Virus record (IMG/VR): IMGVR_UViG_3300011678_000001
Span: 96,001 to 160,000 of that record
Source: a virus
Lineage: Duplodnaviria > Caudoviricetes
Reading direction: 5' to 3' (one strand)
Length of the DNA stretch: 64,000 nucleotides
Below are positions 2,664-45,077 of this stretch, one piece after another. The notes below the pieces were generated by a model that saw only the letters and a list, made by a program, of their open reading frames with translations, was not told where the DNA came from and ran no database searches. A program made the translations under genes and the position numbers. Within the stretch, counting starts at the first letter, position 1. Every line of letters starts with the position of its first letter.

Positions 2664-2724
2664 CAGTGTAGCCCTTCACAATTCTACACTATCGGCCTAA
2701 GTTTTATTTATTAACGAGGACACC

Positions 2725-3192
2725 ATGCGCCATCTCTATCACGGCTCAGGCTATCAGCAGAACGAACTCAAACCGGGCATTCACTACACCGGTGAGAAGG
2801 TCGAATGGGACAAGACCGAATCCAATGAGTGGTTGTACGCGACCACCTCCATGGAAGAAGCCATTGCTCAAGGGTTTGCCTCCACTGTTGAGAAACACTA
2901 CGCCCTCGCGCGGTTCATGTCCCACGGTCGAGACCTGACCTTGGTGTTCGACAAGCAGGTGCCAACGCTCCAACAACTGACCGACCTTAAGGTGTACCTC
3001 TACAAGATCGATTGGGACATTGCACAGTGGGTCAAGGTCAACAACCTGCACAATGGCATGGAGACTGAATACAAGACCCAAGCCACCCTCAAGGGCGATG
3101 TGATCGACAGTTGTACCCAGGTGGACCTTAAGCAGTGGCTGAGTCGCAAGACGGTCAAACTGCTGAGTAAGAAAGCGGCCCTGAACTGGTGA
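2725..3192 (+). CDS. putative ADP-ribosyltransferase-fold protein (Arr-like)
   Basis: GAGGA RBS; LYHGS...ELKPG and WLYAT...EEA motifs match the H-Y class ART/Arr pattern; late ETEYK may supply the catalytic Glu. Confidence 0.5.
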   Translation: MRHLYHGSGYQQNELKPGIHYTGEKVEWDKTESNEWLYATTSMEEAIAQGFASTVEKHYALARFMSHGRDLTLVFDKQVPTLQQLTDLKVYLYKIDWDIAQWVKVNNLHNGMETEYKTQATLKGDVIDSCTQVDLKQWLSRKTVKLLSKKAALNW

Positions 3193-3248
3193 TTTAGAAT
3201 GAAGCCTGTCTATGGTGTGGTTCTATTCCATCCCCCTAGGATCTCACC

Positions 3249-3605
3249 ATGGACATTCAGATCAACGCAGGCGCTCTCATCGATGAAAACTGGCTTAAGG
3301 ACGAATACACTAAGTTGTTCTTGGGATTAGACCACAGCGGTAACTACATCCATCCGCAGAAGGCCATCACGTTAGAGTGCTGGCGGTGTCTCCCAGACTG
3401 CGTACGTGAAACAGGTCCAGCCTTCAAAGAAACCCCTGAGGCCTTGGTGCTGGCTGTCTTGCGTAAAGGGGGTCAGTTCTACTCGCTATATACCAATGTC
3501 CAAGCCAAGACCAACGGTGAGGTCTTAGCCTGGTTGACGACGATACATCGCTACCCTGAAGGCGACCTGAACCAAGTCACGATTGAGCAGCTTGAAACCG
3601 CCTGA
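3249..3605 (+). CDS. hypothetical protein
   Basis: AGGA RBS; follows the ART-like gene; ends at a hairpin. Confidence 0.7.
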   Translation: MDIQINAGALIDENWLKDEYTKLFLGLDHSGNYIHPQKAITLECWRCLPDCVRETGPAFKETPEALVLAVLRKGGQFYSLYTNVQAKTNGEVLAWLTTIHRYPEGDLNQVTIEQLETA

Positions 3606-3607
3606 CA

Positions 3608-3648
3608 AAGAAAAAAGAAAGAGGGGCGTTGGCCCCTCGATCTATTTT
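3608..3648. terminator. bidirectional terminator between convergent genes
   Basis: GAGGGGC-GTTG-GCCCCTC with an A-rich tract on the left. Confidence 0.65.
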
Positions 3649-3656
3649 GACTCACC

Positions 3657-4274
3657 TCAACGACCGTTGAGGAAGTCTTTGGCTTGCTTGGCAGTGAGGT
3701 TCTGAATCCCCTTGCCACCGAACCGTGAAGCACTGCTGCTGATGCCCATGAACTCACCTTGAGCACTATCACTTTCAAGGCTCTCGTACGAGGCCACAAA
3801 GGAGATATGGCCTTTGGTCACATGCAGTACACCGGACTGCCCGTCCAACATGGCACGGTGATAACCCCTTGCCAGATGTTGAGGGCGCGTGTTGAAGTCG
3901 TCCCAGCTCAGTTCGATCACGTCGGGACGACGGATGTTACTGACGAAGTTGCTCCAAAATAGCGGGGTAGCAATGACCTTCTCAGGCTTGGGTTCAGCCA
4001 CCCGCATGCGCGATACAGAAACCATGCCGATAGCCGGATCATGCTTGACTATATCTTCAGGGACTTTAGCAACCGGTGCTTGTTCTTCAGCAACAGGCTC
4101 AGGTGTGGGCGTCGGTTCAACGACCGGTTCGGTGGGTTCGGGTTGCTTGTACTGAGTGGCCACTGGTGTGGTCATGGTCAGTTGGACTTTACGGCCGGCT
4201 ACCAACTTGGCACCCAGACCACCGAGTGCAGCAGCACCCACGACACCCGCAGCGATGATAGCAGATTTAGACAT
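3657..4274 (-). CDS. membrane-anchored protein with Pro/Glu linker
   Basis: GGAG RBS before MSKSA; N-terminal hydrophobic helix; PEPTEPVVEPTPTPEP linker; under promoter copy 2. Confidence 0.75.
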   Translation of the reverse strand: MSKSAIIAAGVVGAAALGGLGAKLVAGRKVQLTMTTPVATQYKQPEPTEPVVEPTPTPEPVAEEQAPVAKVPEDIVKHDPAIGMVSVSRMRVAEPKPEKVIATPLFWSNFVSNIRRPDVIELSWDDFNTRPQHLARGYHRAMLDGQSGVLHVTKGHISFVASYESLESDSAQGEFMGISSSASRFGGKGIQNLTAKQAKDFLNGR

Positions 4275-4324
4275 GATGTTCTCCTTAAGAACAGGGTAGT
4301 CAGAGGGAAGAAGGTTCTTCCTTA

Positions 4325-4397: not shown

Positions 4398-4691
4398 TCA
4401 CGACTTGGCGACACACATCTGATAAAACTCAGTGTGGACCTCAAGGATTTCATGAAGTGTGGTCACCGTCTGGATGCGGTCAATGAACACCCCGCACGAA
4501 GCCATCACATGGATGAGCAGTTCACGGGCGGCTTCAAACTCATCGCCTTTCAATAGACTGGCGGGACAATCTCGATACATCTCCAAGAAGACCCGTAGGT
4601 GACTAGCGGTGATGCGTGCTGCTACCCAACGCTCACGGTTATCGAGAAACCCAGGTGATGTACGGTTGGCAGGGGAAATGGAAACATGCAT
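4398..4691 (-). CDS. hypothetical protein
   Basis: 97-aa ORF between the upstream gene and a terminator. Confidence 0.65.
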   Translation of the reverse strand: MHVSISPANRTSPGFLDNRERWVAARITASHLRVFLEMYRDCPASLLKGDEFEAARELLIHVMASCGVFIDRIQTVTTLHEILEVHTEFYQMCVAKS

Positions 4692-4704: not shown

Positions 4705-5352
4705 TTAAGCGGTGGTGGCACTGTCCATGGACATGTCAGGTGGTGGGACCAGGTAGAAGCTCCATGTCACTGCCTCAAGTGCTGCTCGGTCATTGGCGGT
4801 ATACGCTGCCACGAGGCGCTTCTCTGCAGCATGGCGTTCTGCTGTGAATAATGCCATCGCCGGCGAGAACTGAGAGTCGTTGTGCAGTACCCGGTTGGTC
4901 AGGTCCAGAAGATCACTCTCCAGTCCTTTAGCAATGCGGCTCATGGCCAGGTCATACAGGAACGGTGCTAGTTCACGAGGAAAATCAGCCACAACGCGCG
5001 ACTGGTCTTCTGCTAACCACGATTTAACCATACGTGCATCGACCACCTGAACGGGCCAGGTGATGGTCTCAGCCAAGGGATAGCCTGACTTGATGTAGTC
5101 GACAGCAAAGTCATAATCTTCGTTGAGCTTCTGGACTCGAAGGTCGAAGACAGTCTTAAGTGGAACAATGACCGGTTCGGCAATCGGCGGCTCAATGGTG
5201 ATGGGATTACCTGACTCATCACTCGTCAAGATACGTCCTGCTTGAAGCTCGCTCAGGATACGCTGATAATCTTCCTCTGGGACAGCGACGACGTCAGCCC
5301 AGATGGTCCCGTCGTTGATAAAGGCATTCCGGCTAGGGGAATAGTACATCAT
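4705..5352 (-). CDS. tail fibre assembly (Tfa-like) protein
   Basis: N-terminal YYSPSRNAF...DVVAVPEEDY...G..LTSDESGNP pattern typical of fibre-assembly proteins; late-type ATCCTATG upstream at 5390-5397. Confidence 0.55.
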   Translation of the reverse strand: MMYYSPSRNAFINDGTIWADVVAVPEEDYQRILSELQAGRILTSDESGNPITIEPPIAEPVIVPLKTVFDLRVQKLNEDYDFAVDYIKSGYPLAETITWPVQVVDARMVKSWLAEDQSRVVADFPRELAPFLYDLAMSRIAKGLESDLLDLTNRVLHNDSQFSPAMALFTAERHAAEKRLVAAYTANDRAALEAVTWSFYLVPPPDMSMDSATTA

Positions 5353-5419
5353 GATAAAGGGCCTATTAAACAGTGAAGCGAAAAAGTCTCATAGGATGAC
5401 GCTCTGTTTACGGCCAAAC

Positions 5420-6293
5420 AAAAAAAATAAAGGAAGAAAGTCTTGGGGAAGCTTGGATGTCCACAATTGCCGGAACGCTCAGGTTCCACTCAGGGGCGAC
5501 CTGAGCTGTGTACAAGTGCCATCTTCCCCGTAACCTTTGTTGCCATGCGCCTACGGTTTGGTAGGACTTAGATGACCTGTGGTCATCAGATAACCGAACT
5601 CAATCGGTGCGAGAGATTAGGTGGTAACCCAATGTTGTTACCCGACCTATGAAATGCTGACGGAGCCCACAGCCACCGTGCAATTCGACAGATCGAGCCG
5701 CTTTAAGTACCTGCCCGCTTACCTGTTCGCTTGGAGCTTCACCGCGATCAATTCCAATGTACAGCGATTCTCCGTTGTGACGTGGTAACGTCACCTTTGA
5801 CAGCACAATGGCCGGGATGTCGAGAAAGGCTGGATTGTTTGATGCACTAAAGTGTTGCTCGCTGGAGAACCAACCGGCTTGTGTCTTGCCGTGATGCCCC
5901 ATCAAGAGTCCGAGTAAGAAGACCAATACCAAAGCTGGTCCGCGTGTGACGATAATGTTCTCCGTTTCATGATAGGTTTAGAGGGCAGGTTAGACGCGCC
6001 CTGTTGCCGTCTCAGTTAAGTTCATAGTCACGTTCGGTCGCCACCGTACCATGCGCCTTATGCATGAGGCGGGACCGACTCCCGATTAAGTTCGTGCGAC
6101 GCTTACTGTGCCTGACCTCACGGTGCCGTGCAGGACGAAGGCGATAGAAGGGAGTCCAGTGGACCACCAACACCTTCTTTCTAATCCAGCACGACTGATG
6201 CCATGAGGTCGAGCGCAGGGCTTCGCTAAGCCAGCAAAAGTGCATGCAATTCCTTAGCCAATGTCACAGTGCTACTACATAGATATAGCACTG
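5420..6293 (-). ncRNA. candidate large structured non-coding RNA (about 870 nt)
   Basis: No convincing ORF; at least 11 local and long-range helices; T-tract on the minus strand at about 5417-5431; strand inferred from context. Confidence 0.55.
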
Positions 6294-6307
6294 ATCGTAA
6301 AAACAAA

Positions 6308-6595
6308 CTACCCTACGGTAGTGGGCGTAATACCTCGCTGTTGAAAGTCTTCGGTGTGTTCCAAGAATACGAGGGTGATGTCCCCCGTCTCGATGTCGAT
6401 CAAGATCCGAGACCCCGGTTGAATGCTGGTGGGACGATTGCCCTCGAACTCGACAGTCATCTCGATGGTCCGCCCCATGGCAAACGACAGATGATTGTCG
6501 GTGCTGATCTCATTGATGATAACCACCAATTCGTTCATGTACCCGGCAATCAGGTTCAACAACGGATGATGGTGTTTGATGTTCTTAATACGCAT
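6308..6595 (-). CDS. hypothetical protein
   Basis: 95-aa ORF overlapping the end of the upstream gene. Confidence 0.65.
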   Translation of the reverse strand: MRIKNIKHHHPLLNLIAGYMNELVVIINEISTDNHLSFAMGRTIEMTVEFEGNRPTSIQPGSRILIDIETGDITLVFLEHTEDFQQRGITPTTVG

Positions 6596-21017: not shown

Positions 21018-21066
21018 GTATAACTCCGAGATGGAAAAGATAAAGCTACATAAGATTTTAGGCAAA

Positions 21067-36362: not shown

Positions 36363-36884
36363 CTATTCCTTTTCTGGTCTACATATCCGATCGAGCCAAG
36401 CCCGTCGGAATTCACGGCGTTTACGCTTTACCATCGTCCTGACCGATACATCTCCACTGATGACTAAGTGGGCCTCGTCTGTCGTCAAGGCAATGTCCTC
36501 ATGGACGATTACATCATTGAACGACCAGAAGGCTTCACTGCCTTCGTCACCGTCTACTGCATGACACTGCGCACGGCTAATACCCAGTGTCGTTTCAAGG
36601 CCCCGTATCAACAGACTCCCGTAGCCACGGCGACGGTGGTCGTGGTGCACGTAGACCATGATCTGGTGTGTCCGTCTGTTGTATGCAGCGCAGCCCACCA
36701 AGGTGCCTTTGATCTCAAGGCCCACCACTTTCCAAGGGGAAGGGCGATGTCCGTCCCAAATGCCGTCCAAGGCGTCATGCAGGGTCCCTAACCGACCGTT
36801 GTTCAACTTGGCGTCAAGACAACGACCGGCGACGGTCACCTGATCCTCGTAAATGAACTTAGCGGTTTCGGCCACGGTATCCAC
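36363..36884 (-). CDS. GNAT-family acetyltransferase
   Basis: Motif A VYVH.DHRRRGYGS.L and later ..AFW. Confidence 0.8.
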   Translation of the reverse strand: MDTVAETAKFIYEDQVTVAGRCLDAKLNNGRLGTLHDALDGIWDGHRPSPWKVVGLEIKGTLVGCAAYNRRTHQIMVYVHHDHRRRGYGSLLIRGLETTLGISRAQCHAVDGDEGSEAFWSFNDVIVHEDIALTTDEAHLVISGDVSVRTMVKRKRREFRRAWLDRICRPEKE

Positions 36885-44032: not shown

Positions 44033-44321
44033 CGCTATCTTCAGATAGGTTCGTTAGGCCTACCCCGCCTCTCAGTAGCAGGCAGCTGCATGTCGCCATG
44101 CAGGCGAGATCATATCACGCTCCACTTCCTGTGGAGCCCTCCCATTTCGAGGTCACTTGACCCCTACTCTACTCACCTTGTTTATCCATCATGGCAAGGT
44201 TTTCGATGATCGTTGAACGTTCCCTTGTACGGGGCTTCGCTGCTGATTGCCTCAGTGAGGGTTCCCAGCAATTAGAGAGGTTATTCAAGATAGCTTACGC
44301 TACCAGGGCGCACTTTACTTT
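44033..44321 (-). mobile_element. group I self-splicing intron in thyA, 289 nt, no endonuclease ORF
   Basis: Exon 1 ends in U (CGT) and the intron ends in G. Core elements: P AATTGCTGGGAA (44262-44273), Q AATCAGCAG (44240-44248), R GTTCAACGATCA (44207-44218), S GTGATATGATCT (44107-44118). P1 has the U.G pair. Removal restores YQR-SADVFLG in frame. Confidence 0.92.
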
Positions 44322-45077
44322 ACGCTGGTACAGCTGGCAAGACAAACGACGCTTCGGCACGCCCTGGTCGTCCAAGTACTGATCGATCATCTGACCCAAG
44401 GCTTCGCCCTTGATGTTGTCATCGAGTTCGCACAACCAATTGGAGTACTCGCTATTGTGGCCGTCGTAACCTGGCTGAAGGATCTTCTCACGCTCTTGGC
44501 GTGTCAGCTTGACTGAGTAGAACTGGAACAGGGCATGACACGGCGGCAGGGCCATCTGATCCACCAAGGCAGGGTTCCACGCACTGACGATCAGGCGGCG
44601 ACTGTCTGGGTTCTTCTTCAGCATATCGATCAGGTTGGTAATCTGATCAATGCCTTCGTTACCACGACCCTTACACTTCGGACACGTCCACTCATTGAAG
44701 GAGACGTCGCCGAAGTCTGCATCGTTGCACTTACCCGTTCCACCACAGGTTTCGCACTTAACAGGGGTGGGCCAGCTGCGCCACTGGGCGCCATAGACCG
44801 GACCGAGTTCGCCGTTCTCATCAGCCCATTCGTCCCAAATCCGAACACCGTTCTCTTTCAGGTAACGAATGTTGGTGTCACCCTGCAGGAACCACAGCAG
44901 TTCGTGGATGATCGACTTCAGATGACACTTCTTGGTGGTCACGAGCGGGAATTGTCCTCCGCTCAGGTCAAACCGCATCTGATAACCAAAGACGCTGTAC
45001 GTTCCCGTGCCAGTTCTGTCTTCCTTGAATACACCATTGCTTCTAACGTGCCGCATCAAATCTAAATACTGCTTCAT
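44322..45077 (-). CDS. thyA: thymidylate synthase, exon 1 (with two in-frame insertions)
   Basis: [32 protein letters not shown], catalytic [13 protein letters not shown]; exactly 252 codons to the splice site. Confidence 0.95.

Follow-up and report, generated by a model that had tools for sequence, protein, structure and literature searches.

The locus studied here raises the question of whether a stretch of about 0.86 kb, in which an initial annotation had seen no convincing gene and had proposed a large non-coding RNA in the size class of GOLLD and ROOL, is indeed non-coding or is read by ribosomes. The window (the whole stretch of DNA analyzed, 64,000 nt) comprises bases 96,001-160,000 of a 269,790-bp IMG/VR virus record. 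The closest cultured relative of this record is Pseudomonas phage pPa_SNUABM_DT01 (DT01 hereafter), to which a virion protein is 72% and a nearby ATPase 50% identical. The genome encodes an RNA polymerase beta-like protein (PF00562 match in a 742-aa frame), and a multisubunit RNA polymerase is typical of phiKZ-type phages. The stretch is placed between the minus-strand genes 6308-6595 (95 aa) and 4705-5352 (phrog_188-like). No ORF of a known family was found between these two genes, in line with the initial annotation, but two reading frames are maintained there in all eight homologues. We conclude that the stretch is a discrete, self-contained, heavily base-paired minus-strand RNA unit, which is common to a small clade of giant Pseudomonas-type phages. 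Its boundaries, the covariation of its RNA, the frames with Shine-Dalgarno-like (SD-like) motifs and the modular exchange of its domains are, as judged from sequence comparison, firm.

The set of eight homologues consists of the window, three IMG/VR jumbo phages, three metagenome or read-assembly contigs and the cultured phage DT01, and represents only about five to six independent lineages. The IMG/VR contigs (L002/L003, L004, and L005) were retrieved with a flanking-protein search and a conserved 20-mer, L006 with a metagenome scan for the 20-mer, and L017/L018 and L019 by searching the translation of the second frame (ORF2) as a protein. L019 is a Logan contig (SRR28911045) and the DT01 copy (L020) was taken from MW735835.1. 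Ten of the 11 metagenome hits of the 20-mer (L007-L016) were chance matches in unrelated genes, and the genome_contigs pattern hits L022 and L023 were dropped because they do not match covariance model R1 (see below). Further pattern scans of IMG/VR gave no contigs beyond the same three, and when the region and its DT01 copy were compared by BLASTn with 50,697 phage records, DT01 itself was the sole hit. DT01 and the window have in common a 5′ end with TCTATG followed by TAGTAGCACTGTGACAT, a GGUC...GACC hairpin, the sequence CGAUUAAGUUCG, and a tail of AAAGGUUACGGGG ... CCCC-AGACUU-U-run. A single CDS of 77 aa is annotated in the syntenic 1-kb stretch of DT01 (L020:7887-8120; MW735835.1, PA10_00292); it is the equivalent of the first frame (ORF1) and is listed as a hypothetical protein. 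The next 640 nt are unannotated and contain the ORF2 equivalent and the 3′ domain. In the DT01 record the unit is located at about 249,884-250,780.

The unit and the elements that delimit it are as follows:
5420-6278, minus strand: whole transcription unit, about 859 nt (835-894 nt in homologues), with a minimum free energy (MFE) z-score of -5.7 and 205 consensus pairs, 54 of them compensatory.
6307-6322, minus strand: terminator-like hairpin and U-run of the upstream 95-aa gene, forming the upstream boundary of the unit.
6278-6281, minus strand: TATG motif matching the phiKZ late-promoter consensus, with the putative start at the G at 6278.
5420-5427, minus strand: U8 run, the terminator tail that ends the unit.
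5390-5393, minus strand: next TATG, a promoter-like motif of the downstream gene.
4398-4691, minus strand: gene of a 97-aa helical protein, the sole neighbor that every genome has beside the unit, from which it is one gene more distant in the window.

The hairpin upstream of the unit and its GTT(A/T)GTTTTTAC tail are kept in the seven close homologues, with merely a comparable AT-rich stretch in DT01. The TATG motif follows 16-20 nt past this U-run (or past the AT-rich stretch of DT01) in 8/8 homologues. A TATG with transcription starting at its G is the late-promoter consensus of the phiKZ non-virion RNA polymerase (PMC4666361). With this motif in every copy and a multisubunit RNA polymerase encoded by the phage, the locus has the marks of a phiKZ-type late transcription unit, which would start at the G of TATG. 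The AT-rich stretch that had been described as promoter-like is in fact the terminator of the upstream gene, and the conserved TATG comes after it. A hairpin proposed at 6267-6274/6286-6293 is not supported: it spans the predicted start, and L002 does not preserve its upstream arm. At the other end, the unit closes with a long stem (AAGGUU-ACGGGG ... CCCC-AA-GACUUU) and then a U-run (5427-5420), which is found at the same place in 8/8 homologues, so the T-tract end noticed earlier is real. The next TATG lies about 30 nt beyond this U-run and reads CCTATG in the window, L019, L004, and DT01. Both the strand and the extent originally proposed were right, given the conserved boundaries (6278-5420) and an excess of G-U pairs.

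The 97-aa protein shows 48-88% identity across genomes, its gene being located at L002:5843-6133, L004:1809-2099, L005:1542-1832, L017:3524-3814, L006:11196-11486, and L020:8806-9096. A helical bundle is predicted for it with confidence (pLDDT 82), and searches for Pfam, PHROG or PDB fold relatives returned no match (E ≤ 0.001 in the fold search). In the window, L019, L002, and L004 only, the phrog_188-like gene (tail fiber assembly; 4705-5352, minus strand) is present between the unit and the 97-aa gene; it is absent from this place in L005, L017, L006, and DT01. Given this patchy occurrence, it looks like an insertion/deletion polymorphism.

The fold of the unit is organized in four parts, given in the 5′ to 3′ direction of the RNA:
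6079-6229, minus strand: variable, stably folded long hairpin arm inside ORF1 (helices 3-5; 13 of 19 pairs with double changes).
6034-6078, minus strand: conserved GGUC...GACC hairpin (helices 6-7), kept in DT01, with loop AUAAGG in the window and DT01.
5640-5940, minus strand: central domain of long irregular helices (5935-5912/5724-5700, inner branches and a 24-bp hairpin at 5698-5640; helices 11-22).
5420-5610, minus strand: ORF-free structured 3′ domain (hairpins 5607-5594, 5587-5571 and 5567-5547, a junction and the U-tract).

The density of helices noted initially is borne out by folding against shuffled controls, with z-scores of -5.7 for the minus strand and -2.9 for the plus strand. 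RNAalifold predicted the 205 pairs on an alignment of seven sequences (A5) beginning at the putative start. In these pairs, 93.9% of the cells are paired, versus 34-40% when partners are slid. Changes on both sides affect 54 pairs, compared with 32.7 ± 3.4 in shuffles (0/500 reach this number) and 9-16 with slid partners, although the structure, coming from this very alignment, is favored in the comparison. The homologue covariation that the initial annotation had suggested as a check is thus present. In addition, G-U cells (207) far outnumber A-C cells (27), which identifies the minus strand as the RNA. Together, these comparisons point to strong selection at the RNA level. The arm at nt 50-200 of the unit cannot be aligned between lineages (31-46% identity), yet folds with z-scores of -4.4 to -5.8 in 6/8 copies. 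The last ~190 nt are folded RNA without an ORF. Their junction is closed by 5529-5519/5456-5445 and extended by AAGGUU/AGACUU, and helices 25, 27, 29, and 30 covary.

Covariance model R1, which was built on this 3′ domain, finds one match in every relative. It hits DT01 once, at the syntenic place (E = 1.5e-4 for the locus and 4e-4 for the whole genome). No match was obtained in the more distant jumbo phages Noxifer, Xoo-sp14, and FLC9, which is weak evidence because the model is low in information.

Most individual helices of the initial annotation recur in this structure. Six local helices (5445-5451/5523-5529, 5550-5554/5561-5565, 5571-5577/5581-5587, 5618-5628/5637-5649, 5777-5783/5788-5794, and 6034-6039/6073-6078) were confirmed in the homologues, most of them with compensatory changes, the second being invariant. 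The long-range pair 6114-6120/6204-6210 agrees with the extended 5′ arm. Other pairs did not survive the comparison. At 5477-5484/5499-5506, a change of the first arm in L004 and L006 is compensated by an adjacent CCUGAG-type arm, while ACCUGAGC is fixed as a loop; the long-range pair 5829-5836/6183-6190 is broken in L005 and L017, with a competing local pairing that covaries. The pair 5864-5870/5957-5963 is compatible with all sequences but has no double changes and competes with a helix that has one. The repeated 10-mer was found to be specific to the window. A pairing of the 5′ AAGGAA with UUCCUU in the 3′ tail was considered separately and rejected, as by eye it is not kept in L002, L006, and DT01.

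The same RNA contains two open reading frames, each preceded by an SD-like motif:
6251-6255, minus strand: AAGGA motif, 5 nt before the AUG of ORF1.
6012-6245, minus strand: ORF1, with 77 codons in the window (homologues: 71-123) and a non-conserved peptide.
5951-5963, minus strand: GGAG-N6-AUC in the frame of ORF2, a candidate non-AUG start in a single-stranded linker.
5600-5953, minus strand: ORF2, 117 codons from the AUC here and 98-108 elsewhere, with a hydrophobic N-terminal segment.

The frames are open at about nt 34-267 and nt 312/326-608/679 of the unit in 8/8 homologues, including DT01 with its unalignable interior, and both start at the same positions in L002 as in the window. Neither frame has an in-frame stop, compared with 1-9 stops off-frame, a count at or above expectation; for ORF1 the other frames contain 1-8 in the eight homologues. 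ORF2 has no polymorphic stop site versus 3-6 in the five other frames. AAGGA-N5-7-AUG is found in 8/8 copies, shifted by 9 nt in DT01, in a context similar to the ribosome sites of real genes in the phage. GGAG-N6-AUC is invariant in seven homologues, and DT01 has GGAG-N8-AUC in frame. ORF2 would then be initiated at AUC, which is a very poor start codon. Read from this codon, the product begins in both clades with a short polar stretch followed by a hydrophobic segment.

The frames do not look like ordinary genes. Variable columns are spread evenly over the codon positions (49/52/51 in ORF1 and 33/28/36 in ORF2), as opposed to 34/24/66 in the real upstream gene of the same genomes. Codon-usage log-odds range from -0.16 to 0.15 in the clade of the window (0.01-0.15 for ORF2) versus 0.45 ± 0.12 for real genes (minimum 0.25); ORF1 of DT01 scores 0.28, on a foreign training set. 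On the side of coding, the closest informative pair yields a dN/dS ratio of 0.28 for ORF1 (1.1-1.5 off-frame). The ratios for ORF2 are 0.38-0.83, and in three independent pairs the synonymous share equals that of one off-frame. AlphaFold gives ORF2 a pLDDT of 38, compared with 82 for the 97-aa neighbor at the same alignment depth. Compensatory helix changes lead to radical residue changes, such as R-H to Y-Y in helix 21. The ORFs of DT01 and the window show no BLASTP or profile similarity, though the flanking proteins are 50-52% identical, and searches of 5.8e9 and 1.84e9 proteins gave no ORF homologue beyond the clade of the RNA itself. Two hits of the ORF2 profile (P0006 and P0007) were spurious, resulting from summed weak matches to repeat proteins. 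P0006 (1623 aa), whose E-value of 1e-21 arises in this way, is built of about 18 copies of an 88-aa tandem repeat and has the appearance of a DNA satellite in translation.

These properties would suit a purely non-coding large structured RNA, acting in trans late in infection (scaffold, RNP or multimer), as has been proposed for GOLLD and ROOL, with frames and SD-like motifs that are incidental or serve at the RNA level. Its proponents could point to the covariation and strand asymmetry, the flat codon-position variation, the codon usage unlike that of genes, the low pLDDT of ORF2 and the lack of peptide conservation between clades, and also to the central domain, which is 77-94% identical between lineages beside a gene with saturated synonymous sites. 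Moreover, two open stretches of this length occur in 5-14% of dinucleotide shuffles of single sequences for most copies (0/1000 for L005). We nevertheless regard such an RNA as doubtful. The frames are found at the same places in at least five lineages with unalignable interiors, while off-frame stops are at or above expectation and ORF2 has no polymorphic stop, and in DT01 the SD-like motifs are again found, at shifted positions, with in-frame starts at the correct spacing. The chance of such positional frame retention is at most 1e-3, as a rough and post hoc estimate.

What is expected of a non-coding RNA is thus found in compensatory changes beyond the controls and not in its reading frames, two of which stay open in 8/8 copies behind SD-like motifs. 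Conversely, what is expected of coding sequence is found in frames that are open across diverged relatives with a ribosome-binding site, and not in product conservation, genome-typical codon usage or a foldable product. Conserved codon patterns and translation of the ORFs at 5600-5932 or 6012-6245 had been named beforehand as observations that would speak against a non-coding RNA. The homologues bear this out only in part: the frames are open in 8/8 copies behind SD-like motifs, yet without classical codon-pattern conservation. The proposal of a large RNA in the GOLLD/ROOL size class consequently stands as to a discrete, structured RNA of ~860 nt in jumbo phages without an Rfam family, but its ‘non-coding’ part is weakened. 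Since two small frames are kept open, an unusually structured small-protein transcript with a folded tail is likelier than a purely non-coding giant RNA. Our preferred reading, to which we give a probability of roughly 0.55, is that DT01-like (phiKZ-type) jumbo phages make the unit late, as a structured transcript that is translated. It would encode two small, weakly constrained peptides and end in a folded 3′ domain that has no ORF and contains the terminator.

According to this reading of a translated late transcript, the RNA would be made late in infection by the phage non-virion RNA polymerase from the TATG start. A 33-nt leader with AAGGA-AUG would be followed by ORF1 (about 75 codons), coinciding with the 5′ RNA domain (variable arm and conserved hairpin), and then by a single-stranded linker that contains the ORF1 stop and GGAG-N6-AUC. 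ORF2 (about 100-117 codons), with a signal- or anchor-like hydrophobic N-terminus, would coincide with the central long-helix domain, and the ~190-nt ORF-free, multi-helix 3′ domain would end transcription by its closing stem and U-run. The two unpaired linkers would serve as ribosome entry sites for two small peptides that evolve fast, that of ORF2 being made at a low level from AUC. Conserved helices within and after the ORFs would set the stability of the RNA and the reading of each frame, as in MS2-type RNAs. Because the ORF boundaries are also RNA domain boundaries and the ribosome sites lie in unpaired linkers, this layout resembles structured polycistronic phage RNAs. We infer the start site, translation, the AUC start, the functions of the peptides and the regulatory coupling from the sequence features described above.

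The comparison with the neighboring 97-aa gene concerns constraint at the nucleotide level. Between lineages, the synonymous sites of the 97-aa gene are saturated (pS 0.68-0.82; 54-74% nucleotide identity), whereas the ORF2 region, at most 1 kb away, is 77-94% identical with a ‘dS’ of 0.12-0.43. L005 and L017, on the other hand, share 98% identity in the 97-aa gene and only 84-87% in the RNA. The two comparisons point to constraint at the RNA level on all codon positions, to movement of modules between phages, or to a combination of the two. For the central domain, L004 is closest to L005 (94%); for the 3′ domain, L004 is closest to L006 (80%) and L005 to L002 and the window. Such discordant patterns of domain similarity argue for modules being exchanged between phages. 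In the sequences compared, L019 is the cleanest natural experiment, with a fully compensated 3′-domain allele in near-identical flanks: all five flanking proteins are 100% identical to those of the window and about 4.4 kb of DNA contain ~12 differing positions, while 5400-5599, which holds the 3′ domain, has 39 differences with every helix preserved. A further mosaic junction emerges from the comparison of L019 with the window at 2700-4300: apart from the 3′-domain patch, the two are near-identical down to ~4400 and then diverge strongly across 3100-4200, with 86% identity in a 226-aa protein.

The constraint also bears on whether the region simply contains two ordinary small protein genes, with the RNA structure being an artefact of the alignment and folding programs. 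Gene callers do annotate ORF1 and ORF2 in several records. We consider this reading very improbable in the face of the slid-partner and shuffle controls, the G-U/A-C asymmetry, the z-scores in unalignable arms, the compensated L019 allele and a ‘synonymous’ divergence of 0.12-0.43 where the neighboring gene is saturated.

Domain exchange could instead reflect a strictly dual-function RNA, one that yields the peptides and whose fold, chiefly the ORF-free 3′ domain, has a trans role of its own, such as binding of a phage or host factor, allele exchange being the mark of an arms race. Such a role would explain why the 3′ domain keeps its architecture even in DT01 and is swapped as a block, with full compensation, in otherwise near-identical genomes; the discordant similarity patterns among domains and the 97-aa helical protein as the only constant neighbor also fit. 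We judge it unlikely, given that a terminator or stability element is a simpler account of the 3′ domain, that the fold search of the 97-aa neighbor was empty, and that no motif is enriched (GGA occurs 11-18 times versus 12.7-15.8 expected). The idea of an RsmA/CsrA sponge was dropped on the latter ground.

Searches of the window, DT01, and L006 against Rfam gave no family match, with only chance-level hits at permissive E-values of up to 10. For GOLLD (RF01998) this holds both at the gathering score and at E-values up to 10, and there was likewise no covariance-model match to ROOL (RF03087), OLE (RF01071) or HEARO (RF02033), nor an Rfam match to group I or II introns, RNase P RNA, tmRNA or 6S RNA in the region. 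This agrees with the initial annotation, which had seen no group I, group II, RNase P, tmRNA or tRNA hallmarks. An intron would interrupt a host gene, whereas the unit is flanked by the preceding terminator and the promoter that follows. ARAGORN detected no tRNA in the 64-kb window, and a tRNA association of the GOLLD type is accordingly lacking. The unit resembles GOLLD and ROOL in size (~0.6-0.9 kb), a multi-domain ornate fold, the phage context, and its own promoter and terminator, and differs from them by the lack of a covariance-model match and of adjacent tRNAs. To our knowledge, GOLLD and ROOL have not been described as keeping two open frames with SD-like motifs, as the unit does.

The RNAs of MS2/Qbeta-type ssRNA phages likewise have compensatory helices inside coding regions and ribosome entry at unpaired linkers, and in MS2 the control by structure of how much each frame is read is established. 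Unlike these, the unit is a transcript of a dsDNA jumbo phage with barely constrained peptides. A long-range pairing of the 5′ end with the region near the ORF2 start (6272-6263/5950-5942) was rejected and is not relied on: it does not covary, mismatches in L002 and L006 go uncompensated, and DT01 lacks it. A match to the MS2 operator was at chance level only. Bacterial dual-function RNAs (SgrS/SgrT, RNAIII/hld, and SR1) also combine a folded RNA with a small ORF, but they are shorter base-pairing regulators with conserved peptides, while the unit has two ORFs on ~860 nt. We know of no described dsDNA-phage transcript that combines helix compensation over ~860 nt, open frames with drifting peptides and domain exchange.

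The interest of the unit lies in compensated helices over ~860 nt together with two open frames whose peptides drift almost freely, and in the swapping of whole RNA domains among genomes that are otherwise identical. Should coding prove to be the main role, the unit clearly exemplifies a phage mRNA under heavy structural selection that also has a conserved non-AUG start, and it would be a warning for ncRNA screens built on ‘gene-free’ gaps. If a role at the RNA level dominates, it would be a new large RNA class in nucleus-forming phages, in which RNA is the only phage nucleic acid exposed in the cytoplasm. The unit might even be above all a trans-acting large RNA of these phages that founds a new class, with exchangeable domains, a 3′ domain or whole fold that binds a phage or host partner late, and frames that are secondary or only load ribosomes; we hold this to be possible, albeit rather doubtful. 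As the unit is present in a cultured Pseudomonas aeruginosa phage (DT01), it is directly testable.

Two further elements were observed in the same genome. The only group I intron of the window is located at 44086-44331 on the minus strand (RF00028; 53 bits versus a gathering score of 50, E = 1.2e-10) and overlaps the 5′ part of ORF 44295-45077. In addition, a separate structured RNA of ~440 nt (G000:C1, ~89,256-89,700) without an Rfam family shares with the unit the phage clade, including DT01, and a TATGTAG before its start, but has neither sequence similarity to it nor an R1 match. The minus strand of the window has only three TATGTAG sites. One belongs to the unit, the other two (21046-21052 and 36379-36385) are found shortly before gene starts, and all three closely precede the start of a gene or an RNA. 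The position of the motif before these starts and before the ~440-nt RNA fits a late-promoter core that may be longer than TATG.
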